DNA of 63,446 bases, the filler included, from Reclinomonas americana ATCC 50394 (taxonomy: Eukaryota), in NCBI GenBank assembly GCA_048213135.1. It is 7 parts of one record of this genome, joined end to end, with 100 filler letters (N's around TTAATTAATTAA, not from the genome) between each part and the next. Parts side by side here need not be neighbours in the genome. Positions count along the whole stretch, not along the records: positions 22,090 to 50,400 come from PS015082.1; 6 more parts are not named here. One strand, 5' to 3'. The notes under the pieces were generated by a model, which had not been told where the DNA came from, did not search any database, and saw only the letters and a list, made by a program, of their open reading frames with translations. This document shows positions 21,931 through 57,311 of this stretch, one piece after another. The number at the start of each line of letters is the position of its first letter. The stretch's first letter is position 1. The position numbers and the translations under genes were made by a program.

Positions 21931-22162
21931 GGTCTTGTCTCTCTCGCCCTCTCTCTCTCGTGCTGTGTGTTGATGTCTGACAGCAAGCGNNNNNNNNNNN
22001 NNNNNNNNNNNNNNNNNNNNNNNNNNNNNNNNNTTAATTAATTAANNNNNNNNNNNNNNNNNNNNNNNNNNNNNNNNNNNNNNNNNNNNCTTGTGTTGTG
22101 ATGTGGCACGAGGGGAGAAGGGACGCAGCGGCCTGACACGTGCGTATTGCCCGAACGCACAG

Positions 22163-23591
22163 CAATTCTACACGATTATTCCACACGATTTCGGCAACAA
22201 GATGCCGCCGCCAATCGACAACGAGGAGCTGCTGCAGAAGAAGGTGGCGACAGTGGACTCACTGCTGCAGATGGAGGTCGCCGCGTCGCTGCTCAAGTCC
22301 GACGGCTCTGCTGGTTCGCCGAGTGACACATCGCTCTCCTCGACAACCGTCCCCTCCCGCTGACCTGTGTATTTTTCGTGCCAGGTGGCTCAGAGGCGCT
22401 GCACCCGCTCGACGAGCACTACCAGCAACTGCGCACCGACATTGAGCCGGTGGAACGCAACTCGGAGGAGTGGCAGATGGTGGAGCGCTACGTGCGCCAG
22501 TCACACGGCTCGACGCACTCGCACTTCAAGCTGGCTGTTGCGTCTCACCTCATAGATGCAGTTGTGTGTGTGTTTTCAAGCTCTGATTTGTTGCGCTACA
22601 GCTGGTGGAGGTGTTCCGCATTGCTCGTGAGGGAGAGTCGGATCGGTACACGCCGTGGACCACGCTGCACAACCGCCAGCTGCTCTGGCACGGCTCGGTG
22701 CGCTGCTTCCTTTTTCTTGATGAGCTGCCCTCAGTCGCTCACTCGATGCACTCGTCGCAGCGCCTGACCAACTTTGTCGGCATTCTCAGCCAGGGTCTGC
22801 GAATCGCTCCGCCAGAGGCGCCAGTGACAGGCTACATGGTACGCGCACCTGCTGCAAGTCTTTCTCCGTGCACTGACTCACCTGTCCATTCCTTGTGTCT
22901 GCGCAGTTTGGCAAGGGTGTGTAGCGGCGGCGAAAGGCTCTCATTCTGTGTCGTCGCACTCTTCTCACACGTGATTGATCGTACAGGAATTTATCTCGCC
23001 GATCGCGTGTCGAAGAGTGCGCAGTATTGCTTCGCCCACTCGTTTGACAATCGCGGCCTCTTGCTGCTGGCCGAAGGCGCCCTCGGCAACATGTACGAGT
23101 GCACTCGCGCCAACTCGAGCCTCGCAAAGGCACCGCAGGGCTTCCACTCGACCAAGGGTGAGTATGTGTGTGGACGGCGCGAGTTTGCGAGCGTGATCTC
23201 TCTTGCTGACGCGCGGTGCGACGACGCAGGTGTGGGTCGCGTGCAACCCGACGAGAATACCTCCATCACCCTCCCCGACGGCGTTCTCGTCCCACTGGGC
23301 AAGACCAAGGAGCTGCCGGCATCGAGCACCACGCTGCAGTACAATGTTGCGCATCCATATCTATCGGGTTTTCTCTCGCAGCTTTTCTCACGCGCGCGCG
23401 TCTGTGTCGTGCACCTGCAGGAGTTTTGTCGCCGCCCCGCTTACGGTTCCCCGCCTCCGTCCCCTTTTTTCCATTCTCACCAAGCAATATTTTCGTTTTT
23501 GTGGCACAGATTTATCGTGTACGACATGTCGCAGGTCAAGCTGCGCTACCTGATCGAGCTCGACTTTACTGGCCAGGCGCGCCTGCTCTAA
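22163..23591 (+). CDS. PARP: Poly(ADP-ribose) polymerase, PARP1/2 type (regulatory + catalytic domains; 5' part lost at linker)
   Basis: Spliced product: FYTIIPHDFG..HNRQLLWHGS|RLTNFVGILSQGLRIAPPEAPVTGYM|FGK G|IYLADRVSKSAQYC..ALGNMYE..HSTKG..LQYN|E|FIVYDMSQVKLRYL. The H-Y-E triad is complete only if micro-exons 22907-22916 and 23421-23422 are used. Confidence 0.95.
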
Positions 23592-24088
23592 TCGGCACGC
23601 AAACGCCCCTTACTACTCCAGAGTCCAATCTGTGTGCGACCCTCCAATGAAAAATGAAGAATGCTGCTCCCCTCCCTCTGCGCCTCCCACAAGCCGCATC
23701 CCTCCACACGNNNNNNNNNNNNNNNNNNNNTTTTTGGTGGGTGTGGGTGGGTGTGTGTTTGGGTGCGAGCCGTGACAGAATGGGAGGCGCGGCGACGTGT
23801 CCTGTGCACAGAAAATTTGCTGGTATGTTTCGCGTGCGTGCTCTCCCTCTCTCGCGTGCGTGCATGCGGGGAAGGCAAGGCAGCGGCTGGAGTGGTGGGT
23901 GTATGTGCCACGTGTACTGGTGAGAGGAGGTGGAGCATGCCGACGTTGCGATATCGATTGTCCATGGTTTTGCGTTTCACAGGTGCCTTTGGGGTTTGTG
24001 GTGTGCCAGCTGTGGTTGCTCAAGCTTCATCCTCCAGGATGCATAATTTACCGGCTTGTGGCGATGGTTGGAGCAGGATTCGGCTTCC

Positions 24089-24115
24089 GGAATTCGAATT
24101 CGAATTCGAATTCGA
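24089..24115. repeat. (GAATTC)n self-complementary tandem run
   Basis: ggaattcgaattcgaattcgaattcga is visible directly. Confidence 0.9.
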
Positions 24116-24279
24116 CGGTGAGGGAAGCTGCGGAAGCAGAACGGAGACTGTGCGGAGACGGCTGGCAACCTTGCTGATCTTCCAAGGTTGAGCAGAGACG
24201 TCTATTACAGCAGAAGCGTGTGCTGCATCAGCCAAACCTGTGAAACCGGAGTTCAATTCAAGACTTGCAGTCAGCCGAA

Positions 24280-25830
24280 TTCGCGACTGCAAGATTTCCC
24301 AGGTCTGACAAAGGTGCCGCCAAGTAGAGGACATGGTGCCGTTTCAAATGGACCCCCGTCTTGACACTTGGAAATCGACCGTTCTGTTTCTGTGCAAGAA
24401 ACTAATGAATTTGATCGAACGGAAAGGGGTCCACGATTTTGCAGCTGTCTGAACTCGCGACTGGACGACTGTTGCGGNNNNNNNNNNNNNNNNNNNNNNN
24501 NNNNNNNNNNNNNNNNNNNNNNNNNNNNNNNNNNNNNNNNNNNNNNNNNNNNNNNNNNNNNNNNNNNNNNNNNNNNNNNNNNNNNNNNNNNNNNNNNNNN
24601 NNNNNNNNNNNNNNNNNNNNNNNNNNNNNNNNNNNNNNNNNNNNNNNNNNNNNNNNNNNNNNNNNNNNNNNNNNNNNNNNNNNNNNNNNNNNNNNNNNNN
24701 NNNNNNNNNNNNNNNNNNNNNNNNNNNNNNNNNNNNNNNNNNNNNNNNNNNNNNNNNNNNNNNNNNNNNNNNNNNNNNNNNNNNNNNNNNNNNNNNNNNN
24801 NNNNNNNNNNNNNNNNNNNNNNNNNNNNNNNNNNNNNNNNNNNNNNNNNNNNNNNNNNNNNNNNNNNNNNNNNNNNNNNNNNNNNNNNNNNNNNNNNNNN
24901 NNNNNNNNNNNNNNNNNNNNNNNNNNNNNNNNNNNNNNNNNNNNNNNNNNNNNNNNNNNNNNNNNNNNNNNNNNNNNNNNNNNNNNNNNNNNNNNNNNNN
25001 NNNNNNNNNNNNNNNNNNNNNNNNNNNNNNNNNNNNNNNNNNNNNNNNNNNNNNNNNNNNNNNNNNNNNNNNNNNNNNNNNNNNNNNNNNNNNNNNNNNN
25101 NNNNNNNNNNNNNNNNNNNNNNNNNNNNNNNNNNNNNNNNNNNNNNNNNNNNNNNGCATAAGCGTGGTTGACCAGTGGATTTGACGCAACCATTCTATGC
25201 AAGGGTTAGTAAGGCTTCCAACGGACCCCCATCTTGACCCTTGGAAATCAATCGTTGTGCCTGTACATGGAAAACTACGGAATTTTGACCGCAGAGGGGG
25301 TCCACGGGTTCGTAGTCAGCCGAACTCGTGACTGCAAGATTTCCCAGGTCGGACAAAGGTGCCGCCAAGTAGAGGACATGGTGCCGTTTCAAATGGACCC
25401 CCGTCTTGACACTTGGAAATCGACCGTTCTGTTTCTGTGCAAGAAACCAATGAATTTGATCAAATTGACAAGGGGTCCACGATTTTGCCGTCATCGAAAC
25501 TCGCGACTGGACAACTGTTGCGGTCTGTTACATGTACCATTCTATGCAAGAGTCAGTGAGGCTTCCAATGGACCCCCATCTTGAACCTCGGAAACCATCG
25601 TTGTGTCTGTACGCGGGGAACCATGGAATTTTGACCGAATTGACAAGGGGTCCATGATTTTGCCGTCATCAAAACTCGCGACTGAACGGTTTTCGTGGTG
25701 CGTTGCAGGTATCAATTTGTAGGAGACATGGTGGTGTTTCCAATGGACCCCCGTCTTGGCACTTGAAACCCAACAGTTCTGCTTGTACGCGGAGAAGAAA
25801 GGAATTTCGACCGAAAAGGGGGTCCGAACC
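24280..25830. repeat. ~175-bp satellite-like tandem repeat with A/B dimer structure and internal inverted repeats, spanning a gap
   Basis: The YGGACCCCC core recurs at 24349, 25222, 25394, 25569 and 25744, each followed ~75-80 nt later by GGGGTCC. 24281-24477 is nearly identical to 25326-25523. Confidence 0.85.
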
Positions 25831-26398
25831 AACCTCCGATCCCGATTTGCGTTGTGCTGCATTCGCGTGCAGTTATCCTTGTCCGGTACAACGACTTTCA
25901 CTTCAACATGACCTTTGTCGAGCCTACAAGCTGCGCGCCGAAGTGCAACCAAACATCGATATCGATCCAAAAACTGGCTGTGGTTCTTGTCAACCATGAT
26001 CGGGCCAAGAAGGCATAGTCCATTGCTCCGACCGCTGCTAGTCACCATCGCCGTCCTCTTCCTTCTGCACAGCGTGCTTAGACCGCCTTCGCCCGCAGCC
26101 AATCCGCACCGACCAACCAAAACCATCATTTGTTTCATTTCGCGAGCGAGAGAGCACACTGTCAACACCGACACTCATGCTGCGGAAAAAACACTCGGGC
26201 GGAACCAGTGGGAGCGGTCCATCACTCGGCGACCTACTTCGCACCGCCAAGGCTGCACGCGAACGGTGAGTTCTTATTGCACTCCTCTATCCTCAATCAA
26301 TTTCCGTCGACTTACTGAATCCACGACTCACTTCAATTGGGGTCCCAATATCACTGTCAAGACCGCCGCCAGTGCACATGCACCGGCAGGCGGTGCCG

Positions 26399-27878
26399 AT
26401 GCTGGTCTATACCACTGGCCCCGGGGTGCAATACATGACGCAGGGTTCGGGAGGCTGCACACTGACACAGGCCAGCCAGGCCGAGAGTGAGGAGGTCGAC
26501 GATGAGTACACGGCGTCGCAGTCGACCGCCATGTCGCCGGTCCTGTTGCCGGCGCCCACGGCGGCGTATCATGTGGCACGCACGCAGCGACGTCCTACCC
26601 TGGTGCAGCATGAAGTCGGACCGTATCACCATCACCACTACAGCAGCAGTCAGCAACCCGTCTACATGACGCAAACGGAAGTTGTCGCCCAGCCGCCACC
26701 ACCGCCGCCACCACCACCGCCACCGCCGCCACCACCGCCAGTTGTGGACCTGCAGCCCCTTGAACACAGTTACTCCTTTCGTGTTTTTTTTGCACGACAA
26801 TAGCGCGCGCGAGAGGCGACTTACTCATGCCATTGTACGAGCGCAGTGCTCCGACAGCACCTGGACAAGGTGGACGAGAAGATGAACGAGACATCTGGGG
26901 CGCTGTCGGCACGCGTCTCCAGCGCACTCGAGCACCTGCACGAAACCGTGAACTCGTCCCTGCAAACTCCGCCAAATGCGCCGCCGACTGAACCCGTGGT
27001 TCCATCGGAGCTGACCGAGTCGATCAAGACGCTGGAGACGCAGCTGGCGTCGTACAGGAAGGGCTGGAAGGTGATGCACGAAACTGTGCGCAGCCAGATG
27101 GGCGGCATCGCCACGCAGTTGACGCAGACGCTGCGCGAGGAGGTACGTTGTGCATGAAAGAGAAGGCCAGTAGTAGAAGCCTTCCACCATAACACCCGTG
27201 CACAACACCGCACAGATGAGTATCGTCCGGGAGGTGCCGCCGCTGCTGTTGCCACCACTCCCACCTCTCCCGCCGCCGCCACCCGCCCCGCCGACCGTGG
27301 ACACGCAAGACTTGTGCAACCAGCTCGTACGCCAGCTTCGCCAACCGCTCATCGCCATGGCCGAGGCGGCGCAAAAGGCAACCGAGCGCCGCCTGACGGC
27401 GCTGTTGGGCGAGGCAGTGCAGGCGATCCAGTGTACGCTGATGGCGCACATGGTGGCTCCCCCGCCACCACCACCACCACCACCACCAGTAGCAGCCCTG
27501 TGCAGCGAGACGACCACACTCACCACCTTCACCTCGTCCACCACCACGACCACCACCTCCTCCTCCTACGCCTCTCCTTTGCCGGCCGCCAGCCGCACCA
27601 CCGCCATCCAACATTGGCTCAACTCGCTGCAGACGGGCGACGGACATGTGACCACAGTGCACGACGACTGGAGCGTCGATTGCTGGCTGGACGCCGACGA
27701 GAGCGCCGAAGTGGTGACGGCCACTGCCACCAAGCGCAAGAAGCTCGTGTCGGGGCGGAAGCGGCCGCGCGAAAGCGAAGTTTGTCAGCAACAGCAGGAG
27801 CAACGAATGGTGGTGACTCGACGCTTCCGGAGATCGCACCACGCCGACGGAGAGCACGAGCTGCACAGTCTGCTCTAG
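26399..27878 (+). CDS. Pro/Thr-rich hypothetical protein with basic (NLS-like) C-terminal patches
   Basis: Three consecutive plus-strand ORF segments with polyPro tracts and KRKK/RKRPR. One clear intron gag|gtacgt...acag|atg lies near 27143-27216. No domain recognised. Confidence 0.4.
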
Positions 27879-28248
27879 AGGGAAAAAAACAACAGGCGGC
27901 CCAGACGCTCTGAGTGAACAATCAAACCAATATGCACTTCTTCCTTCTCACATAACACAGAATTCCACTNNNNNNNNNNNNNNNNNNNNNNNNNNNNNNN
28001 NNNNNNNNNNNNNNNNNNNNNNNNNNNNNNNNNNNNNNNNNNNNNNNNNNNNNNNNNNNNNNNNNNNNNNNNNNNNNNNNNNNNNNNNNNNNNNNNNNNN
28101 NNNNNNNNNNNNNNNNNNNNNNNNNNNNNNNNNNNNNNNNNNNNNNNNNNNNNNNNNNNNNNNNNNNNNACCCAACTTTTTTTGAGTGTGACAAACAAAA
28201 AGTCAGCAAAGAGGCAAAAGACTGTGCATGACAACAAGCAAGCGCAAC

Positions 28249-30290
28249 TCCACGCTTCAGGCACTCGCGAGAGACGGCCGGCATGAGGGTGGGAATGTAG
28301 GTCAGCACCGGGATAATGGGCGAATCGCGGTCACCAATGACCATGAAGCCCATCTCGATCAGGCGATCGCGGAAGTAGTTGGAGTTCTCCTTCAGCGCAT
28401 GAATGCGCTTCACACCGTCATCGGTGCCGTCCTCGCCGATAATGACCTCCAGAGCCGACAGCGCCATGCGCGCGCAGCCCGGCGCCATCTGGCACGAGTA
28501 CACCGAACCAAACGTGGTGCGGCGGAGGTAGTCGATCAGCTCGTGAGATCCCGCAATGTAGCCGCCCACCGAGCCGAAAGACTTGGTGAAGGTGCCCATG
28601 AGAATGTCCACGTCCTTCGGCTCCACACCGTGGTACTCGCACACTCCGCGGCCGCTGTGACCAATGGCACCAATGCTGTGCGCCTCGTCCACGTACAGGT
28701 AGCACTGCGGATGCGAGTCAGCAGGAGAACGGGGAGAAGAGTGTGCAGACAGGCAAACACACACACACACACACACACCTTGTACTTCTTCTTGATGGCA
28801 ACCACTGCAGGCAGGTCCACAATGTGGCCCTCCATCGAGTAAATGCCCTCCACCAGAATCCAAATGCGCTCCCACGGGCGGTGCGTGCGCGGCTGGCCCT
28901 CGACAATGCTCTCGCGAATGACGCGCTCCAAATCCTTCACATCTGTGTTGCATGAAGAAGAAGAAAAGAAAACACCGCATTGAGAAAATTGGTCCACGCG
29001 TCACGTGTCTGTGTCGCGATGCGTACAAACCTCCGTGCTTGAAGACGCGAATCTTGGCCGCACCTCCGCGGGCGCCGACCACCAACGAGGCGTGATTGAG
29101 GGAGTCGGAGATAATCAGAGTGCCCTTCGGTGCGAGCGCCGGAAGCACAGTCGAGTTGGTCGCAAAGCCCATGCCTGCACACCACCAAAAAGTTCGAACC
29201 CAGTCAGTCGTCCAATAACCGGAGCCACGTGTGTGTGGGTCCGTGAATGCAGCAGTCGACGACATGCAACGCACCGAAAATCATGGCTGCCTCCTTGCCC
29301 ACAAACGACGCAATCTTGCGCTCCAGCTCGCGGTGCACATCCGTGTAGCCCAAATCGCAGCTGGCACCGCACGTCGACACGCCCAAGTCATAGATCGAGC
29401 GCTCCACGTCGTCAATGCACTTGCCACCGGTCTGTGCAAAGCCCAGGTAGTTGTACGAGCCGAGATTGATCACTCCGCGGTGCACCTGTCCCTCCACGAC
29501 CCTGCAAAAAACAATCATGCATGTATGCATTGAGTCGCTTGCAGAAAACAGCAGAAAGCTGCGGCAAAGAGGCGAAACTTGAAGGTCTTGAAGTTGTCCT
29601 TGGACTCGCGCACCATCACATCGAAACGCGCACCAGGCACCGACTGGATGGGTCTACGCAAACGCACGATCAGCACAAAACGCAAGACATGTCGCGCTTT
29701 GAAAGGACGGAGAGAAAAGACGCACCGGTTCCAGCAGTCCTGAATGCGGTGGTACCTGAGAGGTGTGAGGGACACAGAGGGAGACGGTGTCAGCGAAAGA
29801 GACAAGGAGAGGGTGAGCCGCTCAAAAGCAACGCAACAGGTTGCGGCAGTAAAAGTCCTGCACACACACACACACGGAGAAGCAAGTATGCAGTTAGTGC
29901 AATGATGCAACGACACGCATGAGGCAACAGGCAGAGCAAGAAAGGGAGGGAGAGGGAGGGACGGGAAAACAAAACGACAGACATGTCCGCGTGTGTTTGG
30001 GAGCGTGATCAACGGCCGTCACATGCACTTGAGCGATACCACGCACGATCGCCGTCACACACGCACGTGCTCACGCAACGAATGCAAACACGCGGAGCGA
30101 GAGAGCAAGACAAAGAGAGAACGAGAGAACAAAGAGAGAGCAGGCAAGGATGCTCGTGGAAATGGCGGCTCGCAAGAACAGCGGAGAAGTGCGCGGAGTA
30201 CGGGCTCACCTCAAAGTCCGACACCAGTGGGCAGTAACCCGGTGGCGCCACATTAGTCCGGCGACGCAGGATCTTGCGAGCAAAATCCTG
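28249..30290 (-). CDS. LCB2: Serine palmitoyltransferase catalytic subunit LCB2/SPTLC2 (partial)
   Basis: Motifs [79 protein letters not shown] and the PLP-lysine motif MGTFTKSFG. Confidence 0.95.
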
Positions 30291-30990
30291 ACACGCAAAA
30301 GTGTGTGTTNNNNNNNNNNNNNNNNNNNNNNNNNNNNNNNNNNNNNNNNNNNNNNNNNNNNNNNNNNNNNNNNNNNNNNNNNNNNNNNNNNNNNNNNNNN
30401 NNNNNNNNNNNNNNNNNNNNNNNNNNNNNNNNNNNNNNNNNNNNNNNNNNNNNNNNNNNNNNNNNNNNNNNNNNNNNNNNNNNNNNNNNNNNNNNNNNNN
30501 NNNNNNNNNNNNNNNNNNNNNNNNNNNNNNNNNNNNNNNNNNNNNNNNNNNNNNNNNNNNNNNNNNNNNNNNNNNNNNNNNNNNNNNNNNNNNNNNNNNN
30601 NNNNNNNNNNNNNNNNNNNNNNNNNNNNNNNNNNNNNNNNNNNNNNNNNNNNNNNNNNNNNNNNNNNNNNNNNNNNNNNNNNNNNNNNNNNNNNNNNNNN
30701 NNNNNNNNNNNNNNNNNNNNNNNNNNNNNNNNNNNNNNNNNNNNNNNNNNNNNNNNNNNNNNNNNNNNNNNNNNNNNNNNNNNNNNNNNNNNNNNNNNNN
30801 NNNNNNNNNNNNNNNNNNNNNNNNNNNNNNNNNNNNNNNNNNNNNNNNNNNNNNNNNNNNNNNNNNNNNNNNNNNNNNNNNNNNNNNNNNNNNNNNNNNN
30901 NNNNNNNNNNNNNNNNNGAATGTCTTCACACGCAAACCAGAGACAAGTTGACACGTGTGCTGACAACTCGACCTCACTCGTCACTCACTC

Positions 30991-31401
30991 ACCAATGACG
31001 AATGGGCCGGCGGGCGGGCCCTCGCGCAGCCTCGTCTCGGCCTTGACCTCGACACGCATGCGCAGGAGGCCGCACAGGATCGGAATGCGGTCGGTCACGG
31101 TGAAGTCGACTTGCTCCTGTCGCCGCGAGTGCACCACAATGCCGTCGGCGAACGGGTGGCATTTGAGCACGTTTTCCGGCTCGTGGAACCAGAACCGCAA
31201 AACGTCTTTTGGTGGCGCGTCTGTGTGTGTGGAGAGAGAGAGAGAGTGATGAGCTTGATTGATCAAGAGTCTCTCTCAGGATCTCTCACCAATGTCTTGC
31301 TCCAGTGCGAATGTGAACGTGCTGCGCTTCTCGATCAGCACGTACACCACCGCAGCGAGCACGGCCAGCACAAGCAACCCCTCGGGCACACCGAGAATCA
31401 T
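30991..31401 (-). CDS. N-terminally anchored protein with possible SRPBCC/START-like domain (partial)
   Basis: MILGVPEGLLVLAVLAAVVYVLI hydrophobic segment, then APPKDVLRFWFHEPENVLKCHP..VDFTVTDRIP, which resembles the start of SRPBCC folds. Confidence 0.45.
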
Positions 31402-31490
31402 GTTTGGTCACGGGTTACAAACCGTAATTCCTCGCCGTAACCCCAGTTACCCTCATCTATCGCCGGTGCGCGGAGTTGCAGCCAAACCAC

Positions 31491-33118
31491 ATGGAGGAGG
31501 TGCGTGCGACACACACACATGCACAACAGTGTCATGACTCGCACTGCTGCGCATGTTCTTCCGCGTGTGTGCGCCTGTGTGTTGGCATGACGATCGACAT
31601 GGCACACAAACTGCTTCTTCCTCTCTCTCTCTCGCTCTCTTTCTCTCTTCCAGTCCTCTATCAATGTTCATGCCACACACCTGTCTCTTTCCCTCTCCTT
31701 CGCATCACTTGTGCTTTTTTTTCGCTGGATTCGTCGCGCATCGCATCGAAAAGTTCTCACTCTCTTCGCATTTTTTTCTGCGCAGATTGTGCACTTGCTG
31801 AACACGGAAGTGGTGGATCGCCTGATTCTGGGTGTCGAGCCGAACCCGGCCAACACTCCGCTCTCGTTCGACTACTCGGTGTGGCGCCAGGCGGCGCTCA
31901 TTTGGTCGCTGATCACCTTTGGCGGCTACATTGTTTGTTGCGTCAATTGCCTGGTCCTGCCTCCCTCTCATCTGCCTCTTGTCACTCACGCACCCCATGT
32001 GCGTTAGATTTCATCTTCTGCACCCTGTCGTACCTGTGGACGTTCAAGCTGTACAAGAACTACTACTTCCCGCAGGGTCTGGTGGTGCCGTGGAGCCAGC
32101 TCGGCAGCGAGATCTTCCTCTCCTGCTGGTCGATTCCCATCATGGGCTTGCTGACGGTGCCGCTGGAGGTACGCGTCTCTCTTCGTCGTTGTCGTTGTGT
32201 GCCGACTGCCAACTCACCTGCATCGGCAGCTGCTGGTGCTGTACGGCTACACCAATGTTTACTTTAATGTGTCGGACTACGGCATGGCGTACATGTTTGT
32301 GTCGCCGGTGCTGTTCCTCATCTTTACCGACTCGCTGATCTACTGGATCCACCGCGGCCTGCACGACATCCCGTGGCTCTACAACAACATCCACAAGCCG
32401 CACCACACCTTCAAGGAGGTGACGCCGTTCTCGGCCTTGTCGTTCCACCCGGTCGACGGCTGGGCGCAGGGTCTCCCCTACCACCTCTTCGTGATGGTGT
32501 TCCCGTTCCACTCGTACATGTACTTTGGCGCCCTCCTCGTCGTCAACATGTGGACCATCAACATCCACGATCGTTGGTCACTCGACATCCCCGCCGTCAA
32601 CGGTGCTTCGCATCACGACATTCACCACCGCAAGGTATGTGCGCGCGCTCCCAATAGTGTGCTGATCTCCTGTTCCAGTTGCTCACTCTCTTGTCCCTCC
32701 CCCCTCGCAGTATGTCGTTGCGTACAATGCGTCAACCTGCTGCTCGCACCCGTGCTTCCCCCTCATTGCTCACCTCTCTCTGCTCGTGTCATCTCATCGC
32801 CATGCACACCAGTACAACGTTGCGTCTCACTCACATTGGTTTGTTTGTCAAGCGTCGCGCCACTGACCCTTCCCTTCCCTCTCCCCCTACGCAGTATGGC
32901 CAGGTGCTGTCGCCCTCCCTCTGTTCTCTCACCCCAGCCTCTCATCTCACATTCACACACTTGCTCAGTACTTGACCTTCTGGGACAAGGTCTGCGGCAC
33001 GTTCCTCGACCCGGCGGTGCAGGCGGCCAAGGATGCCGAGGAGGAGAAGAAGTGGGGCAAGCGCTCCGGCTCGGTCTCCACAGGTGCCGGCAAGAAGAGC
33101 ACCATCAAGGCGGCGTAA
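31491..33118 (+). CDS. ERG3: C-5 sterol desaturase (ERG3/SC5D family)
   Basis: His boxes YWIHRGLH, IHKPHH, SFHPVDG, NIHD and HHDIHH, then YV|YN|YGQ|YLTFWDKVCGT from micro-exons 32711-32716, 32813-32818 and 32895-32903. Stop TAA at 33116-33118. Confidence 0.93.
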
Positions 33119-33323
33119 TGGAACTGGCGAAGGATTGTTATTGTTTTTTTGTTTTCTCCTCCCAAGAGTAAGTGTGTGCACAGTCACTGTCTGTGTGATT
33201 CTTTCCCCGTTCAACGTACGGAGAAGTGAAGACGCATGACAAAGGCGGTGACGGCATCCATACGTACACAAACACAGCTTATTTAATTGTATTGCTTTGA
33301 CTGCTCTCTCATGATTAACAATG

Positions 33324-38339: not shown

Positions 38340-38458
38340 CCACCGAGCGCCGAGTGCGTTCTTTTGAATGCGAATGAATAGTCAAAGGATTGAGGACCGT
38401 GGGACGTGTGGGAACATCATGGGTTTAGTTCATTGTCGGAAGGCGTGCTGCCGCTGTT

Positions 38459-39187
38459 TTACGGGATGATGTATCCATCGGGGGCGCTGCCGCACCAGTG
38501 CTCATTGAGCCACTCCACTGCAATGCCAAACTTGCCATTCCAGTGCACGCCATCGCCATTGCTCGACGCGTTCGAATCTAAAACCCAAGGTCGTTAGCTT
38601 TTTCACACAAGACGACGTTCTTCATGCTTCTGTCTCGGTCACCTCCGATGGAGAGCGCGGCGTGACCATTGGAGCTGCATCCGCTCCAGAAGAGCACGGC
38701 TCCGGCGGGCACATTAGTGCCACTGTAGTGCGTCCAGCCGGCCTTTTGCTTGGCCACCGCCGCGCCTTCCTTGGCGCTGCCCTGGTCGAGGTAGTCGCGG
38801 CGGACACCAGCCGACGCGTAGGCGTCCTTCACAAAGCCGAGGCAGCGGCCGCTGTCAGAGAGTGTGAGGGCGCACAATAGAGAGAGAAGAGTGTGTGAGA
38901 GAGGAAGAGTTAGACGAAACGCGTAGGGCGCGGCCGACTTCTGGAACGCCTCGCGCTCAAACTCAATGGCTTGCTGGATGGCATCGCCCACTGGTTGCGC
39001 CTCCAGTTCCTCGGGCGCCTGCAGTGACAGCGAGAGCACTGAATGTGTGCGCGTGAGTGAGTGACAGCGTGTGAAGAGTGCTCTTGTGTGTGTAGAAGGC
39101 ACCATTCTCCTCGTCCACGACAACAGCGTGCGCGAACACGGCCGCGAGAAGCAGCGCGAGAGCGACAATCAACAACGAGCGCGTCAT
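38459..39187 (-). CDS. Secreted CHAP/NlpC-P60-like cysteine hydrolase
   Basis: Signal peptide MTRSLLIVALALLLAAVFAHA, catalytic-like YA|GRCLGFVKDAY, VPAGAVLFWS..NGHAALSIG, and C-terminal GYIIP*. Three GT-AG introns. Confidence 0.7.
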
Positions 39188-39675
39188 GTGTGCTCACAGA
39201 GAGAAGACAAAATGTGCGTGAGAGAGCGCGAGAAGTACCAATGCGTGGCGGAAATGGTGTGCACATCACCCGCTCCCTCCCGCGCGCCAGATTGGTGTGC
39301 AGGAAAGGAGAGGCTGCGGCGGCGGAGGAGGAGGAGCAGAAGTGCGCTATGGCTCCCAGCGACCGCGCGCAATGTTCGAGGTGGCGTAAATATTTCCGAA
39401 TATGGTGAGTTGCAAAGGCCGCCATGCCATCATGCCATCAGTGATGGAAGCGTGTGTAACCCCAACTAGTACTGCAAGTGCGCCCACGCCATCGCCGGGT
39501 GCCATGACACACTACACGAGCAGCATCACGATCGGAAAAATCTCGATATCGACTCGTCGCAACCTGGCTCGCGCCGCAAGCACATCCCAGCTCACCATCT
39601 CCCACGTACGCGCACAGCTCATCACACACGCGTAAAGAAGGTGCGTTTTAGTCAAATAAAAGGGGAGTTGTTCGA

Positions 39676-40381
39676 TCACTCCAACCTCGCCGCCGAGGTG
39701 ATTGCAAACAGCAGCACCAGCACAAACGGCAACGCCACACCAAACGTCCACGACAGCGCGTGACTCCATCCAAACGGTGAGCCAGTGCCGTACTGGTTGA
39801 CGAGGTAGCCGGTGCCGGCCACGACAAAAATGACTCCAATGAAACCGACCACGGAGAAGATGATGCGCGGCACCTTGGCCACTCCGCGCGGGTGGTTGCC
39901 CACCGACAGGAAGATGGCTTGCGCGCCAAAGATGGCCAGCAGCATGAGACCAATCGCGTTCACAATCAGTGTCTGTGCGCGCACAAATGAGCGCGCATCT
40001 CAATGACGAGTGACGCACACAGAGAGACGCAACCTTGAGGCCGACCAGTCCCGCGCCACTGCTCAGCGTGTACGACGAGGTGACGCACGATGACGAGCTG
40101 CGCGTGTGTGCGTGTGTGTCAGTGGCGGCAATGTTCCGACTCTCTCTCTCTCTCGCCACGCAACCTGCAGACATCGGCGTACACCAGTCCACCGCGGTAC
40201 TCGATGCCCTGTCATTGTTCATCAGTGTCAACATCACACCTCTGCAACCACGTCACAACACGCACACACATACCGAGGCCGTGCTGACGATCCAGAAGGG
40301 GAGGCCCGCTGCAATGGCCGCCAGCAGCACGCTGATCAGTGTGAGCACGCCCACAGGCAACCCAATCGCCACCGCCTTCAT
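39676..40381 (-). CDS. Four-TM claudin/PMP22-like membrane protein
   Basis: MKAVAIGLPVGVLTLISVLLAAIAAGLPFWIV first helix ending in W, three further hydrophobic helices, and YGTGSPFGWSHALSW before the last helix. Confidence 0.55.
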
Positions 40382-40500
40382 CGCTCGCTCACACACAGAG
40401 GGAATCACACAGACGGAGGCGGACGGACGCGAGAGCCGCTCCGAACGCGTTGCTGTCCACCGACTCGTCCGCCTCCTCTCTATCTGCAGTCAAACGATAC

Positions 40501-41455
40501 ATGCGCGCGCATCGAGTGCCCCTGCTGCTCATCGCCCTCGTGGCGACACTGCTCGTGCTCGCCTCTGAGGAGACACACGCGCAGTGCTTTGGCAACAACG
40601 GCCTGCTCGCCACCTCGTCGAGTCTGTCGTGCTCCGGCTCGGCCACCTCCAACACATCGCTGTCGTGCCTGCGCTCGTGCTACGCCTCCTTTACCATCTC
40701 CTATGCCACCTCCACCACGGTCACTGTCACGCCGAGCTCGTCTGTGTCAGGGTGCGCATCTTGAATGAGAGAGAGCGTGAGAGCAGTTGCTCACTTCCGT
40801 CTTCTGTGCAGCTGCTCGTGCTCGTCGTTGCAGTACCGCGGTCCGATTGACACTGGCTGCTTCCAGGCCACGCTGTCGCCGGTGACCACGCCCTCTGGCT
40901 ACAACACCACTCTCTCGCTGACGTACTCTGGCGGCAGTGTGACGGGCTCCATGAGCTTCACGCCCTCCGGAACCACCACCGCCACCACATGCTCGGCGTC
41001 GTACTTTTGCAACTCGAGCAGCAACACCAACGGATGCCTCTTTGTGTCGTGTTGCGTCTCACTCTCTCGCATGCCATGAGTGTGCATTTTTCCGCGCATC
41101 TCACTCACTATGTGAGAAACAGGGAGTGGATCGAGCCCGACGCCGACGCCGACGCCGAGCACCGGTAGCGCTGGCGACGGCAAGGCCATCACTGCGGGTG
41201 TGCTGGCGGGCTTGATTGGCGCCGGCTTCCTCTTCTCCGCGCTCGCCGGCGCGATTCACATGTCGAGTCGCAACAAGATGTCGCCGGCACCGGGGTCGCC
41301 CACGGCGGCGCCAATGGCCGGTGCCACCTCGCCACAGGCCAACACGGGCTACGTGACGGCGCCGCCGCCTGCCGCCCCGCAGCAGCCGTACTATCCGCCA
41401 CCGGCGCAGTATGGTGCGCCGCCGCCGTACGGACAGCCAGTGTATGGCCAGCCTG
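40501..41455 (+). CDS. Type I membrane protein with Cys/Ser/Thr ectodomain and Pro/Tyr/Gln-rich tail (3' end in gap)
   Basis: Signal peptide MRAHRVPLLLIALVATLLVLA, TM segment ITAGVLAGLIGAGFLFSALAGAI, and tail PQQPYYPPPAQYGAPPPYGQPVYGQP. Confidence 0.6.
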
Positions 41456-42119
41456 NNNNNNNNNNNNNNNNNNNNNNNNNNNNNNNNNNNNNNNNNNNNN
41501 NNNNNNNNNNNNNNNNNNNNNNNNNNNNNNNNNNNNNNNNNNNNNNNNNNNNNNNNNNNNNNNNNNNNNNNNNNNNNNNNNNNNNNNNNNNNNNNNNNNN
41601 NNNNNNNNNNNNNNNNNNNNNNNNNNNNNNNNNNNNNNNNNNNNNNNNNNNNNNNNNNNNNNNNNNNNNNNNNNNNNNNNNNNNNNNNNNNNNNNNNNNN
41701 NNNNNNNNNNNNNNNNNNNNNNNNNNNNNNNNNNNNNNNNNNNNNNNNNNNNNNNNNNNNNNNNNNNNNNNNNNNNNNNNNNNNNNNNNNNNNNNNNNNN
41801 NNNNNNNNNNNNNNNNNNNNNNNNNNNNNNNNNNNNNNNNNNNNNNNNNNNNNNNNNNNNNNNNNNNNNNNNNNNNNNNNNNNNNNNNNNNNNNNNNNNN
41901 NNNNNNNNNNNNNNNNNNNNNNNNNNNNNNNNNNNNNNNNNNNNNNNNNNNNNNNNNNNNNNNNNNNNNNNNNNNNNNNNNNNNNNNNNNNNNNNNNNNN
42001 NNNNNNNNNNNNNNNNNNNNNNNNNGCAAGCGTGAATCGTGAAGCCCTCATTCTTTTTGGTACACAAGAATTCTTCATTTACAACAACACCATCACCATC
42101 ACCACAGCAGTGTCGAGTG

Positions 42120-43442
42120 TCACCGCAGACCAATCACACCACCCATGGCCAGTGTGGCACCCTGCCGATCCACACCCTGGAAAATTGCGCCCTTCAAGTT
42201 GGCACCCTGACAACGACGAAAGAGCGTCGTGAGTACACAGCGTATGAGTGAGCGAGCAGGTTGGGGCACACGCACCCGCAGATCCGAATCGCGCAAGTCC
42301 ACGTCACGGATGATGGCGTAGGAGAGATTGGCGTTGGAGAGGTCCACGTTGCGCAGAATGGCATTGGTCAGCGTGCAGTACGACAAGTCGGCATTCTTCA
42401 TAATGGCACCCGTAAAGTCGGCGGCACAAGCGTCGGCACGGCACAGCGACGCTCCGGTCAGATCGGCACCCGTGAGCTTGGCACTGTTCAAACGGAATGA
42501 GACGAGAAGGAGAAGTGAAGAGCGGGGTGAACACGCACCTGGTGAGCAAGCTGTGCGACATGTTGGCGCCGCGCAGCGAGGCCGCCACCAGCTGCGTCGA
42601 GTGCATCTTGGCGCGGTGAAAGTTGATGCCCGACAGATCCAGATCGTTGAGCACCAGCGTGTTGAAGCAGATGCCCTGGAAGCGCAGTGGCGTGCCCGAT
42701 GTGGTGCTCATGATGCTCTGCAGGAGAGTCAGCCACACAGCCACACACAGCGATAGCACACCAGGCGCAGCGCAACTCGAACCACATCCTCGCGAGTGAC
42801 CTCCGGCTCCCGCTGCGAATTCGGCAGCGTGGCCTGTCGCGCCTCGGCAGCCTCGTCGGCATCGAGCATGCGCTGCACCGCTTGCTCCAACTGGCGGAAA
42901 CACGAGCCGTGGTGAGCAACCCCAGAAGCAAGAGCGCCAGAAACAAAAGACCAGCACGCACTGTTTCGACCCCGAAATACTGCGCCTCACGGAGGAGACC
43001 ACGAGTGGAGGTGCCCTTGTCGAGTCGCACCTCGCCCGTGCGCAAAAACGACAGGATCACATCAAAGTAGCGTGGATCTGTGGACGACGATCATCAGCGT
43101 GCCTGTGTGGCGATGCACACGCACGCACGCACGCACGCACCGCGATCAAACAGAATGCGTCCCTTGTCATCGCGCGAAAACGGGATGGAGCAGCTGTCCG
43201 AGGCGCCACTGTCGAGCTCAGCCAGATTGCGGAAGAGCGCGGAGCTGTCGTCCACAAGCAGAGTGGATCGCGTGGTGCAAAAGTACTCGCCGCCCACGTT
43301 GAAGTGAATCCACTGTGTGCAGGTGTGCGTAAGAGAGAGAGAGAGAGATGTGGAGATGCGGAAGACCGCAGCGCACCTCTGAATCGTCGGACGATGAGCG
43401 TGTGGGGGACTTGGAGGAGGCAGCGGTTTCGGCGGCACTCAT
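42120..43442 (-). CDS. KCTD9: KCTD9-like BTB/POZ + pentapeptide-repeat protein
   Basis: WIHFNVGGEYFCTTRSTL, ILFDR|DPRYFDVILSFLRTG, LLREAQYFG, LRFQGI..DLSGINF, then A(D/N)LxxA pentapeptide repeats. Confidence 0.9.
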
Positions 43443-43838
43443 GATGCGCTCTATGCACGCAAAAAAGATCGAGTACGAAAACAGCGACAACGAAGACACT
43501 TGTCGCAAACGCACGTGCGAAAATAGCTTTCAGACGCGCGCGTTCGAAGTGATGCAAGGCAGCGTGGCGTTGCGAGGGAGGCCAGGCGGTGGGTTACATG
43601 CAGTTTGCCAGGGTAGGCTCCTGTGCCTGGTCGAGCGCGTCCGAAACTGACGGCCTCGACGTTGTGATATCGATCGACGTCGACGTCGTCGTACATTCCC
43701 CGCGCGCCTCACCTTCTCCGCTTGCCCCACAGCTCCTCGACTAACACCACCACCACCGCCTTCTTGTTGTCCACCCGTCTTTCTTTCTGTCATCCATCTC
43801 GTCCCGCATTGGATCCATTTCCAGCTCCTTTTTGTTTG

Positions 43839-46800
43839 ATGGCCGACGAACAGAGTGCCGCCGCTGCCGCTGCACCTTCCGAGCCGCCCAGTCGTAGTTC
43901 TCTGCGTCCGCCTCCGCTCTTCCTGCGACCTCCGCTTGAACCGCTGACGCATCTTCCCGTCGCAGTTGCGCAGCGCTCAGCTTCTTTGCAGTTCGCATTG
44001 TTTTTCTCCTGCTGATTGCCTTGTCTCTCTCTGTTTGCAGCAGCACGACCCGAACGACGAGTCGGAAGACGACGAGGCCGATGAGGGCGACGACGGCGAG
44101 GAAGGCGAGGAGGGCGATGTGTTGATCGATGAAGAATGGGCGCGAACAGTGGCCTCCATGATTGAGATCTACGTGCAAGACTCGGATCTCACGCGCCCCG
44201 AGTCGGCGACGCGACGGCACAACGTCCCCGGACCGTGGATCGATCTGATCATGGCCTTTACTGAACTTGGCGGACTTTCCGAGGTGTGTGTCATGCATGC
44301 ATGCAAGCAGTCTGATCATTCACGTGGATCCACTCATGGATGAGGCGCGAGGGTAGTTTGTGAACGAGGAGAGTCGCGCGGTGCGTGGACTGTATCGGTA
44401 CTTGCGGCGCCTGTTCTCCACGTCGCCAACCGTCGAGTTCAAGCGATGTGGCGATGGGCCGGATCGAGTGCGCCGACGCGCTGTTTCTCGTTCGTGTTTT
44501 GTGCCCCTGTCTCTTTCTGTGGTGTGACGCTCATCGCTGCGTGCTTGCTTGCGGGCTGGGTGCAGAGGAGATTTTGATGCGACTGGAGGAGCTCTTTTTG
44601 TTGCTCCCGCGACCGGAGACCGCCATGGCGCCGGTCGACGAGGAGCCTCCGCGTGACGACGTGGATCTGCAGCGTCAGGACGACGAGGCAGCGTCGCTGA
44701 TGGTGGCCAGCTGGCTCAGTCGTGTGTTGCACCCTCCCGCCACCTATCCAGTGCTCGAGAGCGCGCGACTGGAGCATCCGCTCGGCTACGTGCCGATTCG
44801 TCTCGTGTTTGGTGCGTGTGTGCGGGAAATGAGAGCGACTCTGTGTGTGGCACTCACGTGCGTCTTGCAGCCGAGTGTCCACTCATTCAGCAGGCCTGCA
44901 TCAAGGCCGCCTCCACGACACCGGCTGCGGGCGATCCACTGGCGGCCAAGCTCAAGCGCACCAACAGCGCCGGCTCGTCCTCCAGTGGCGGCAGCAGCAG
45001 CGGCGGTAGTGGCAGCGGCAGTGGTGCTGTCGATGCCGCCGAGCACTACCTCATGTGGCTCATCGAGCGACAGCGACTCCGCGACGCCGGCTTCCTGCAG
45101 CTCGACGGAAGCTCACGTTCGCTGTACACGATCTCGCTGCATGAGCAGCTGTCGCGTCTCATTGTTCACATGTTTCACCCGGCCACCTTGCTCAAGGTGA
45201 CTGTGCTTTCCTCGTCACTGTGTTGTGTCTGCCTGCTGACCTGTTGCTGCATGACGCACGCAGCACACCACGTTGATGGCTGTCTGTGATCACCACCAGG
45301 GCAGTGCGCCGGTAAGTAGGAGCCACACTCCGCGTCGTTGACGCCGACTGACGTTCTTCCCCAACCACAGATTGAAGAGTTCGCCAAGATGCGCCGAGTG
45401 GTGCACGCGCTGCGTCACTTGCCTCGCGAGCTGTGGCTTTCTCGTATTGTTGCGTTGTCGCCACCTCATTCCATGCATTGCGGTGACTGACAGGAGACGG
45501 ATGGTAGGCCACTGCCGCCTCGCTGTGCCCTTCGATGGAGCTCGTGAGCGATGAATCCGGTCGGCAGCTGATCCGCGGCTACAAGGGCGATGCGTACATC
45601 CTGCGCCACCTGCAGGTGTGGTTCTCCGACGAATTCCTGCTGAGCCAGGACGGCCAGCTGTTGCGGACGCTGCTGGAGGAGGACGGCTCGGTGCCCATCG
45701 AAGTCATGTGCGGTTTTGACGCGTTTCGCGAAGAGCACATTTCAGCGGAGCAAGTTGTCGAAGCCATTCGCGGCCAGCCCAAGTTGCACAAGCTCAAGCT
45801 CACCAGAGAACGAGACGCGGTACAGCGCAAGACTCCGTTCAAACTGCAGACGGTGCCAAAGACGCCCGACGAGGTGGTTCGCATCGAATGGGGTGCCGCG
45901 GAGCCGATGCATCTGGTGTGTGTTGGGAATGAGATGCATGGTGCGGAGTTGTGAACTCACTGTCGCGCAGGATGTCGCACCGAGTGAGTCTGCTGCCATA
46001 TCGCCCATGTCACCGCTGCCCAGCGAGGGTCTGCCGCGTGACGAGCTCCTGAGCAAGGTGCGTCGCCGCATTGAATTCTGGCTCTCGGATCGGCATCTGG
46101 CGCTGGATGTAGTTGCGTCGCGCGGCATTGAGCGCCTCCTCAGCCGAGTGTGGAGGGCGGCCTGTGTTCAAACCCCTGTGTCCTTGTCAGTACCTGTCCT
46201 CGTTCCTGTACTCGTCTGGCGACGGATCCATCGGTATCTACGAGTTGCTCGGCTATCCTCCGCTGCTAGCGTGGCTGGCCGAGTACTCTGGTGTGTGATC
46301 ACGAGCCAGCTCCTGCTCTTGCCGAAGTGACTGAGATTCGATGGTCTTCTGACAGAGCGCACCACTATTATCCGCGAGGCTCTTCTCGAGTCGTCGGCGG
46401 TCGAGGTGTCACCGGACGGCATGCAGTTGCGGCGCGTCGACCTGCTGCCCGAGCTGCGTCGCGTGGTGCTGTTTGGCCCACTGGAAAATGCACGAGCGCT
46501 GATCGGCCACTCGAGTGCACTGCAAGCAAGTCAAGGTACAGTACAACTTTGTGTTCTCCGCACCTCTCCAGTCTCTCTCTCACACGTCAGCACGTGTGTG
46601 CTTGTGTGGCAGGCGCATCGTTCACCATGATGACGTACAACATTCTGGCCGAGTCGCTGTGCTCACCCACGTGGTATCCATACGCCGATCCATCATGTGC
46701 GCGACGAGCGTGCGTTGCTGCGCAGCGAGTGGTCTGTCGCTCATTGTGTTTTTTCTGTGACGCAGCTCTCGACTGGGAGAATCGTCGATGGGCGGTTCGG

Positions 46801-48377
46801 TGTGTGACTGCATTCTTGCATATGTTGTGACTGCTGTCCATTCCTCACGCCGTTCTACAGTCGCGAAATTCTGTTCTACGAGCCCGACATTCTCTGCCTG
46901 CAAGGTGAGAACGAAGAGAGAGGTCAACAACAAAAAGGCCATTGTGGTTGACTGTCATTGCAGAGATCCAAGCGCCCGGCAAGTGGGAGCAAGTGAGTCT
47001 CGATATCGTGCTGTATGCACTCCGTGCTTCGCCTCCCTCAACTCGTGTTCGTTCAGGGAGAGCATCCGTCGATCAATCATGCGCACTGGATGTTTAGGAC
47101 GCTGAGTGCTGCCGGCTACCGCGGTCGCTATTGCAGGAAGCGCGGCCGCAACGGACTAGTCATCCAGGAGCATGAGCCAGTGATCGGCAACATGCTGCTG
47201 TGGTTCGTCGGTACAGTGGTGGCAATGGTGGTGATGATGGCTGGATGACTGATCGTTGTATTCTGTCGCAGGAAGGACTCGGTGTTTGAGTTGGTCTCCA
47301 CACACTTCTTCAGCATGGTGCGTCTCCGCCGTCAGTCGATGCACAAGAGTGAGACGTGTGTCGTTTACATGTTGCGCGCAGGCCGATGCGGTCTACGAAC
47401 TGGCCACCGATCCGACTGTGAAGCGCACCATCGGCAAGGGACACACGCAGGTCGCGGTGTTTGCCGTGCTGCGCCATCGTGAACGTGGTGACCTCGTGCT
47501 GGCCGGCTCGACGCACATTTCGGCCAACTGGAAGCAGTCGTACATGCAGATGCGGCAGATGATTGTGTTGAGTCGCGAGATACACAGACTGCAGGGCGAG
47601 ATCAGTGCGCAAATCGGGCACCCGATTCCGGTGGTGCTCGGTGGCGACTTTAATGTGACACCAAACTGCGCCATGTACGGCTACTTGCGTCACGGTGCGT
47701 GGGGCCGTCCCTTCCCGCACAACTTGCATGATATGATGACTGCTCAACCGTTTCTCTTTGCAGGATTTGTGCCTCCGGATCACCCGCTGGTGACAGCCGC
47801 CGCCGACGGGTGCGCGGCGTCCGTTCTCGACTCGACCACTGGTGGATTTGTGAATCCTCGGCCGCTCCGCAGTGCCATGGAGACAGTGATCGGCACCGAG
47901 CCGCATGTGACGAACTTTACCGTGGAATGTTGCGTCTGTTGCCACACGATAAGTGCACTCTTTCCAGTTACTCATTCACTCTGTGGCCTTATTCACCAGA
48001 TCGCGGCACGCTTGACTACGTTGCGTCATTATTTCCTCATGTTGGCAGTGTGCGTTTCATGCCTTTCTCACGGTACCCCTCTGGCATGCAGTTGTTCTAC
48101 ACCGAGCCACTCATGCCGCTGGCGGTGCTCGACGTGCCCTCTGTGCAGACTCTATCAAAGGAAAACGGGTGTGTGCTTGCACGTTTTGTCAGTGTGACTC
48201 CGTCTTCGCCTGACTGCTTCTGCCCAGTGGCCTTCCCAACTCGCGTTTCCCAAGTGACCATCTTCCAGTTTTTGTTGCGTCGTCCACCGCTGACTCTCGC
48301 TTCTCGTGTCGCATACTAACAGCTTGCATTGTCGTTGTTGTACACAGGCGCGTTTCAGATTTCCGCCGCACTGGTGA
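43839..48377 (+). CDS. Protein with La-motif (winged-helix)-like domains fused to a CCR4/Angel/nocturnin-type EEP nuclease/phosphatase
   Basis: La-like ILRHLQVWFSDEFL..DGSVPIEVMCGF..VQRKTP and VRRRIEFWLSDRHLALD..DGSIGIYELLGY..EVSPDGMQLRR. EEP motifs TMMTYNILAESL, LDWENRR, PDILCLQE, THI, LGGDFN, TNFT..GTLDYLFY and FPSDHLP. Stop TGA at 48375-48377. Confidence 0.8.
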
Positions 48378-52266: not shown

Positions 52267-52423
52267 GGAGATCACCCCTCTCTTTCTCACACACACGCCG
52301 CGAAGACCGGTGGGAGTGGCGCANNNNNNNNNNNNNNNNNNNNNNNNNNNNNNNNNNNNNNNNNNNNTTAATTAATTAANNNNNNNNNNNNNNNNNNNNN
52401 NNNNNNNNNNNNNNNNNNNNNNN

Positions 52424-57301: not shown

Positions 57302-57311
57302 GTTGAGTGTG

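Follow-up and report, generated by a model that had tools for sequence, protein, structure and literature searches.

It is established that rare human 5' splice sites pair with the U1 small nuclear RNA (snRNA) in noncanonical registers, either shifted or bulged (Tan et al. 2016, PMC4856993; for the shifted register, Roca & Krainer 2009 as summarised there). According to the available passages of the former paper, all validated noncanonical registers together make up 1.5% of 201,541 human sites, and the curated bulge sites number 54 for the +2/+3 bulge and 36 for the bulge at +3. The G at the exon end (-1) and the intronic G at +5 of metazoan donors are described as interdependent in the accessible part of a further study (PMC8283771), while that of a study on a tandem donor in STAT3 proposes non-canonical registers for U6 as well as U1 (PMC11162779). 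The passages available from the Andalucia godoyi genome paper report few introns, all of them GT-AG, and contain no donor logo, and the Eukan paper mentions jakobids only as an unpublished use. A literature search, which did not cover supplementary tables, returned no description of a GTTGCG donor class, nor of donor classes in jakobids or Reclinomonas. The subject of this analysis is the 5' splice sites (donors) in a 63,446-nucleotide (nt) stretch of the intron-rich genome of Reclinomonas americana ATCC 50394 (assembly GCA_048213135.1), referred to below as the window. These donors fall into two classes, one of which carries its intronic consensus one base further from the exon end and is almost never preceded by G.

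Two donor classes and the exon-end base

The existence of two donor classes is confirmed, and is stronger than the manual tally of a first-pass annotation had suggested. The canonical class (C) is defined by G at +5; its introns begin GT-(G/T/A)-(C/T)-G-T, most often GTGCGT, and usually follow an exonic G. In the shifted class (S), defined by T at +3, a base other than G at +5 and G at +6, the intron begins GT-T-GCGT, mostly as GTTGCG, and the exonic base before it is A or T, seldom C and hardly ever G. Only intronic bases enter these definitions, and the remaining donors form class O (other). The base at -1 is A in 45%, T in 38%, C in 12% and G in 5% of S donors, against G in 73% of C donors. 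At +3, where S donors have T by definition, C donors have G in 67%; at +4, G is found in 88% of S donors, and C in 52% and T in 35% of C donors; at +5, C occupies 98% of S donors and, by definition, G all C donors; at +6, S donors have G by definition and C donors T in 78%; and at +7, T (72%) in S donors stands against G (52%) in C donors.

Junctions were obtained with a purpose-written Viterbi gene finder, whose three-periodic coding model was trained on the window itself. Splice sites were defined as GT and AG only in its first stage; acceptor, branch and length signals, and no donor model, were added in the second (the donor-blind set); and a two-component mixture on positions +3 to +8 served as donor score in the third (the refined set). 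The donor-blind run yielded 145 introns, mostly of 55-90 nt and with a CT[CG]AC-like branch motif, among which the most frequent donor hexamers were GTTGCG (26), GTGCGT (20) and GTGTGT (10). GTTGCG thus opens 26 of 145 introns and constitutes 1.1% of all GT hexamers (binomial p = 1e-23). The refined run yielded 152 introns, with GTTGCG at 36 and GTGCGT at 27; a duplicated gene copy (52424-57420) was left out of the class statistics. Class S accounts for 22-29% of predicted donors, for 40 of 136 in the refined set and for 12 of the 29 homology-tested donors. As a plain hexamer, GTTGCG occurs 88 times in the window against 63.9 +/- 7.6 in shuffled sequences (0 of 100 shuffles reach 88), and within gene spans drawn up without a donor model it lies in sense 56 times and in antisense 14 times. 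A signal-only scan, pairing a donor motif with the best downstream acceptor, was tried and dropped, the median acceptor score of model introns being 3.4 and the random 90th percentile 3.3.

The first-pass annotation had further proposed that the donor motif depends on the base at -1, and this dependence holds in the donor-blind, refined and homology-tested sets. G precedes 46 of 66 C donors and 2 of 29 S donors in the donor-blind set (p = 5.7e-9), and 59 of 81 and 2 of 40, respectively, in the refined set (Fisher p = 1.6e-13). Among the homology-tested junctions of four genes, coding for a poly(ADP-ribose) polymerase (PARP), LCB2 (serine palmitoyltransferase 2), a sterol-desaturase-like protein and the PP2A B'' subunit, G is found at -1 in 17/17 non-shifted and 0/12 shifted donors (Fisher p = 1.9e-8), the latter comprising ten GTTGCG, one GTTTCG and one GTTTTG, with two (28248 and 29578) weakly verified. 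Read in the other direction, the 67 refined donors after G consist of 59 C, six O and two S, and the 69 after A, C or T of 38 S, 22 C and nine O. Codon position does not account for the pattern: against a null model based on it, G precedes 2 of 40 S donors where 12.5 are expected (p = 1e-4) and A or T precedes 33 of 40 where 15.4 are expected (p = 1.8e-8), with G before 59 of 81 C donors against 27.4 expected. The preference of S donors for A or T persists at the third codon position (12/14, against a genomic 26%). T at +3 alone is insufficient for the effect, as the donor-blind listing contains both G/GTTTGT and G/GTTCGT (the stroke marks the exon-intron boundary); in the refined set, G precedes GTTTGT in 2/2 cases and GTTCGT in only 2/7.

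A pattern of this kind could be an artefact of how junctions were chosen, by hand or by the gene finder. Most of the 136 donors are predicted, and the donor-blind model made errors, misplacing two LCB2 donors by 5 nt and missing in-frame introns and micro-exons. The base at -1, however, was never used in choosing junctions, and the donor-blind set already gives the p-value reported above. Homology, moreover, places the two LCB2 donors at T/GTTGCG (29837) and G/GTGCGT (29725), so that after correction formerly odd donors belonged to the two classes and the rule still held. For 26 introns, every frame-preserving GT/AG alternative within 30 nt was scored against sets of homologues of LCB2, PARP, the sterol-desaturase-like protein and PP2A B'', and the donor chosen by the model came first in 25 of the 26 tests across the four genes, the exception being 29578. 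An artefact is accordingly regarded as hardly credible.

The one-base offset and its possible basis

The TGCG element of the S donors had been described in the first-pass annotation as displaced by one base, and both a mixture model and profile-shift scoring bear this out. An unsupervised two-component mixture fitted to +3 to +8 of the donor-blind donors returned the components GCGTGT (52%) and TGCGTC (30%) from 10 of 10 starts, which represent one element offset by one base. When S donors are scored with the C profile at non-defining positions, shifting by +1 yields a log-likelihood ratio of +54.1, whereas no shift yields -145.4 and shifts of -1 and +2 yield -2.4 and -28.1, respectively. The displacement of the intronic consensus of S relative to C donors is thus supported statistically. 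Taken by themselves, the exonic positions of S donors give +10.5 for register +1 and -40.7 for register 0, mostly through the base at -1 (+8.8 and -36.9, respectively), and the exon-end base of S donors behaves like the canonical -2.

Introns of both classes are otherwise alike. They are U2-type GT-AG introns whose removal restores a continuous frame matching homologues (26 junctions in four genes), their median length is 69 nt in class C and 71.5 nt in class S, and their G+C content is similar. The branch motif CT[CGA]A[CT] is present in 73% of C and 85% of S introns, against 17% at random AG sites, with the branch A lying 21 and 22 nt, respectively, from the acceptor, and the acceptor reads CAG in 70/74 C and 34/40 S introns. 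At least one S donor occurs in 21 of 26 intron-containing predicted genes, and most genes contain both classes together. The shared lengths, branch and acceptor signals and the gene-wide spread of both classes point to a single machinery, and the common branch signal argues against a minor-spliceosome class. An identity of the S introns as U12-type was considered and rejected, given the GTTGCG donor, a branch motif and spacing as in the main class, and a share of about 30%, which is too frequent for that type.

It was also considered whether the S class is a historical by-product, its introns descending from a mobile 'introner'-like element with a GTTGCG 5' end that inserted after A or T. Several GTTGCG introns begin with a common GTTGCGTCTC, and A or T precedes 33 of the 40 S donors, as such insertion would predict. 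Compared with C introns, however, S introns show no greater similarity to one another in their interiors (mean local score 7.40 for S against 7.05 for C, 95th percentile 11 in both and maximum 15 against 17), which argues against a mobile family, and lengths and branch sites are the same in both classes; a mobile origin is therefore considered very improbable. At LCB2 loci from metagenomes (L066-L069 and L052), which belong to other eukaryotes, the donors that were read are of GTAYGT or GTGCGT type and none is GTTGCG. The GTTGCG copies at these loci looked, by eye, exonic or non-donor. The loci are uninformative on the Reclinomonas lineage and speak neither for nor against a mobile origin.

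The preferred and simplest reading, which stands about evenly between right and wrong, is that a single spliceosome of the U2 type recognises many of the donors in a register offset by +1, in which G+1 replaces the exon-end G. The same U1 small nuclear ribonucleoprotein would bind both layouts alike, and in the S layout would be placed, with respect to the cleavage site, one base farther downstream. G+1 of the intron would then pair with C9 of U1, the slot of the normal exon-end G, while U+3 would pair with A7 in place of U+2 and G+6 with C4 in place of G+5. Cleavage would stay before the GU, and the later contact of U6 with the YGU element would also have to tolerate one extra nucleotide. Such a shifted U1 register accounts for the fact that donors can do without the exon-end G precisely where their motif is offset.

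The same intronic offset would result from a bulged register, in which U1 (and U6) keep their normal pairs with G+1 and U+2, a single U (+2 or +3) bulges out of the helix, and the partners usually offered by +3 to +6 are supplied by G+4 to U+7. A +2/+3 bulge is a register described for human sites (PMC4856993, in the passages available), its position is degenerate because the extra base is always a T beside a T, and a bulge is probably needed at the U6 stage anyway. With the textbook U1 5' end, a bulge at +3 allows slightly more pairs per S donor than the shift (6.53 against 6.20), so pair counts do not favour the shift over the bulge. A bulge would, however, keep the base at -1 opposite C9 of U1, so that G should be favoured there as it is in 73% of C donors, and the observed count is 2 of 40 where 12.5 are expected; the register in which the exonic positions score -40.7 is likewise the one that a bulge retains. 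The missing exon-end G and the exonic scores thus fit the shifted register better than a bulge holding -1 opposite C9, and the bulge is deemed unlikely as the explanation for the class.

Several observations weigh against the offset register, beginning with the scope of the data: all of the evidence comes from this one 63-kb window, in which most junctions are predictions. With the textbook U1 5' end, which may not be that of this organism, the mean duplex energy is -1.67 kcal/mol for S donors and -5.99 kcal/mol for C donors, and S donors can form 4.40 pairs in the canonical register and only the 6.20 or 6.53 given above in the other two, against 7.40 for C donors. The near-invariant C at +5 (98%) would face a pseudouridine of U1, and the matching position of class C has C in 52%. 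T at -1 (38%) is unexplained by pairing to U10 of U1. Positions -2 and -3 add almost nothing to the exonic score (+1.7 against -3.8), and the offset fails beyond +7, positions +8 to +10 scoring -10.0 at shift +1 and -1.3 at shift 0. Lastly, 22 of the 81 C donors lack G at -1, and their intronic consensus is not visibly stronger (p = 0.23).

The weak pairing, the mismatch at C+5 and the T at -1 keep alive a reading with variant snRNAs, in which an altered U1 5' end or two U1 isoforms, possibly with a changed ACAGAGA box in U6, leave GUUGCGU fully paired with one of them. The S motif is tighter than that of class C (G+4 88%, C+5 98% and T+7 72%, against G+3 67%, C+4 52% and T+6 78%), a pyrimidine is preferred in both classes where the textbook U1 offers pseudouridine, and the duplex energy of the S class with that U1 is low. 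However, the same genes contain donors of both classes, with no difference in branch and acceptor signals; the 5' end of U1 belongs to the most conserved of all RNA sequences in eukaryotes; and a pyrimidine at +4 with a U1 mismatch is also the rule in budding yeast, all of which counts against variant snRNAs and makes them a doubtful explanation. It is likewise improbable, though worth stating, that the major spliceosome has co-evolved with the second layout through an altered U1 5' end or through two U1 isoforms differing at the position that faces +1/+2. In that case GUUGCGU would be fully paired and, relative to the U1 helix, the cut would fall one base upstream of where it usually does.

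Donors gene by gene, micro-exons and gene content

In the PARP gene (+ strand), S donors of the form T/GTTGCG are located at 22537-22542, where the junction is the best of nine alternatives against four PARP homologues, and at 23346-23351, the sole frame-compatible junction, upstream of a 2-nt exon (23421-23422). The latter exon is followed by a shifted-like donor, A/GTTTTG, at 23423-23428 (ranked first of three). The C donors of this gene all follow G (22314 GTTCGC, 22698 GTGCGC, 22839 GTACGC, 22917 GTGTGT and 23158 GTGAGT, together spanning 22314-23163) and were placed by the homologue junction test, with 22698 and 23158 additionally placed by homologue scores. In LCB2 (- strand), T/GTTGCG follows a 20-nt exon at 29832-29837, as placed by homology and sequence reading. 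Two further donors of this gene are weakly verified: A/GTTTCG at 29573-29578 ranks second, a donor 27 nt upstream scoring slightly higher (1060 against 1034), and A/GTTGCG at 28243-28248 ranks first of two, with only 6 nt of downstream exon before an N gap. The C donors of LCB2 (30209 GTGAGC, 29725 GTGCGT, 29274 GTGCGT, 29030 GTTTGT and 28778 GTGTGT, within 28773-30209) all follow G and all rank first, with additional placement by tblastn with the LCB2 of the jakobid Seculamonas ecuadoriensis, the best named homologue (78% identity over one exon). This match, in a single gene, suggests a jakobid-like organism. The LCB2 intron at 29858-30209 (-) appears to be genuinely long (352 nt) rather than a chain of short introns, since its flanking exons join without a gap against homologues, and it contains a copy of GTTGCG at 30074-30079.

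The sterol-desaturase-like gene (+ strand; FA_hydroxylase) has T/GTTGCG at 31937-31942, the only alternative at this junction, and C/GTTGCG at 32717-32722 and 32819-32824. Both of the latter rank first and each follows a 6-nt exon (32711-32716 and 32813-32818); for the former, the spliced form is better against 8/8 homologues. Its non-shifted donors follow G and rank first (32169 GTACGC, 32635 GTATGT and 32904 GTGCTG, within 32169-32909), and the spliced protein aligns to homologues without gaps. The PP2A B'' gene (- strand) contains A/GTTGCG at 49431-49436 (first of four against ten homologues) and T/GTTGCG at 49236-49241 (first of seven) and 48985-48990, the last being common to the two best junctions, between which the acceptor alone is uncertain. 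Its non-shifted donors after G are 49936 GTCTCG, 49802 GTGAGT, 49604 GTGTGC and 48740 GTTTAT (within 48735-49936), placed by the homologue junction test.

Verified micro-exons have lengths of 2, 6, 6, 9 and 10 nt. Both the 10-nt exon at 22907-22916 and the 2-nt exon at 23421-23422 of PARP are needed for the gap-free alignment of the spliced protein to its homologue. The 2-nt exon (GA) is flanked by ordinary introns of 75 and 87 nt, and is read here as contributing bases one and two of the codon for the catalytic glutamate. In the sterol-desaturase-like gene, the two 6-nt exons are followed directly by one of 9 nt (32895-32903); the three together raise the protein score against 8/8 homologues, and the gene finder had treated the whole region as one intron of 334 nt. 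The suggestion of the first-pass annotation that the pairing behind the S donors may be what permits exons of 2-6 nt is not supported: the micro-exons are real, and donors of both classes follow them. Exons of at most 30 nt in the refined set (n = 13) are followed by a C donor in seven cases and an S donor in three, and the three sterol-desaturase micro-exons by two S donors and one of class O (GTGCTG). The sample is too small to show or exclude an enrichment of S donors.

Some introns are divisible by three in length and free of in-frame stops, so that they read as open frame and easily escape gene finders. They comprise 22698-22760, 23158-23229 and 47695-47763 (+) and a 75-nt intron starting at 49604 (-); 47695-47763 is a signal-based candidate, as are introns starting at 11469, 38233 and 35262 (-). 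Removal of the introns at 22698 and 23158 raises the score against 4/4 PARP homologues, and removal of that at 49604 improves seven of ten PP2A homologue scores and lowers three.

The sequences cited in the first-pass annotation are present as described, namely GTTGCG after T, C or A at 22537, 23346, 31937, 32717, 32819, 47929, 48020, 48274 and 61397, G/GTGCG at 22698, 31500, 47318 and 47695, and the exceptions T/GTGCGC at 46697 and G/GTTGCG at 40033 (-). Its caution that the rule is a tendency with exceptions was also well placed, in view of the C donors without G at -1 and of A/GTGCGT at 42956-42961 (-) in a KCTD9-like gene, where the exon aligns to BTB residues 57-93 of human KCTD9 up to its second-last residue; the second KCTD9 exon gave no useful PDB match. 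T/GTGCGC at 46697-46702 (+) lies in a gene with putative La and nuclease regions and was placed by sequence and by the fit of the downstream frame, which after the acceptor of this intron matches what is presumably a nuclease-family motif. Only two G/GTTGCG donors are predicted, at 40033 and 40164 (- strand, 40028-40164), in one gene without Pfam match or homologues, and their introns look ordinary. Further S donors are predicted from coding potential, acceptor and branch signals and donor positions +3 to +8 only, with the first intron base at 1301, 905, 646, 6282, 6104, 8054, 12059, 13954, 15486, 17891, 37892, 37677, 36174, 35488, 34401, 33845, 38920, 42776 and 50973 on the - strand, and at 41051, 43965, 46112, 47929, 48020, 48274, 59208, 59805 and 61397 on the + strand.

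A Pfam search with the largest exons named seven genes and left most exons without a family. Among the names are a MEMO-like protein, PARP, LCB2, a KCTD9-like BTB/pentapeptide protein, the PP2A B'' subunit and the fatty-acid-hydroxylase/sterol-desaturase-like protein, and a La domain match is weak and below the cut-off (E = 8e-4; 19.7 bits against 37.1). The La-domain region and an endonuclease/exonuclease/phosphatase-like region at 45535-48377 (+) appear to form one gene, which the gene finder split in two; the putative nuclease assignment is based on sequence motifs rather than a family search. A large gene without Pfam match is present in two diverged copies (52424-57317 and 59104-63292), which may be paralogues or haplotypes, and the 5' piece of one copy (52424-52888) is inverted, with a linker on one side and a gap on the other. 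At orthologous positions the two copies can have different donors, with GTGCGT at 53711 against GTTCGG at 60212, and GTTGTG at 54626 against GTTGCG at 61397.

Six identical linkers of the form N44-TTAATTAATTAA-N44 occur at 7426-7525, 14831-14930, 21990-22089, 50401-50500, 52324-52423 and 57365-57464. Their middle part, TTAATTAATTAA, is a 12-base six-frame stop, and additional N gaps are found elsewhere. Given these linkers, the window is a pseudo-scaffold of joined contigs, in which the order and orientation of neighbours need not be real. Rfam, searched over the whole window at gathering thresholds, returned no match and no snRNA. Relaxing the search to E <= 1 added only microRNA matches that are spurious, located on the (TACG)n repeat of 7334-7425 and, in one case, at 21385-21457. 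The repeat, a microsatellite, gives sub-threshold matches to several microRNA families on both strands.

Comparison with known splice-site systems

Single-profile gene finders will misplace junctions by a few bases in genomes of this kind, as the donor-blind model did in LCB2, and a two-class donor model is needed. Together with the verified exons of 2-10 nt, the S donors point to unusual splice-site recognition in a deep-branching and little-studied group. If an altered or a second U1 is indeed in use, a dual-register (or dual-U1) major spliceosome would serve about a third of introns, and tiny exons might be freed from the exon-side requirement of the donor. With an offset or bulged layout in routine use, the organism would lend itself to asking how the site of cleavage is determined when U1 and U6 bind one base out of step, and would put the assumed invariance of the U1 5' end to the test.

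The U12-type introns resemble the S class in being a second class of donors with a tighter intronic consensus and no preference for an exon-end G, found beside ordinary introns in the same genes. Unlike them, S introns share the branch motif, branch distance, length and acceptor of the main class and are, at about 30%, too frequent; the U12-type donor motif is also unrelated to GTTGCG. As in the metazoan dependence between -1 and +5, in the part of that study available, the base found at -1 is statistically linked with the intronic bases of the donor. The metazoan dependence, known from classical maximal-dependence models, is compensatory within one register, whereas here the loss of G at -1 goes with a one-base displacement of the whole motif. 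Within class C, compensation in the form of a stronger intronic consensus where -1 is not G was not seen (p = 0.23). The STAT3 study, as far as its available passages go, shares with the present data the possibility that U6 as well as U1 binds out of its usual register, but concerns a single human tandem site and not a genome-wide class.

The closest likenesses are with the human noncanonical registers, as described in the available passages. As at the human +2/+3 bulge sites, one extra nucleotide lies between GU and the paired +4 to +6, and U stands beside U so that its position is degenerate; the preference for G at -1 that a bulge predicts is, however, absent here. As in the human +1 shifted register, the downstream element is one base farther from the cleavage site with G at +6 instead of +5, all U1 pairs would be displaced by a single position, pairing in the canonical register is poor and the GU remains the point of cleavage. 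In contrast to the human sites, the S layout comprises 40 of 136 predicted donors, has a tight consensus of its own (GTTGCGT) and markedly avoids G at -1. Noncanonical 5' splice-site registers are thus already known, with offset or bulged U1 pairing confined to a small fraction of human sites; in R. americana they would form a major and routine layout, maintained by selection and with its own rule for the exon end.

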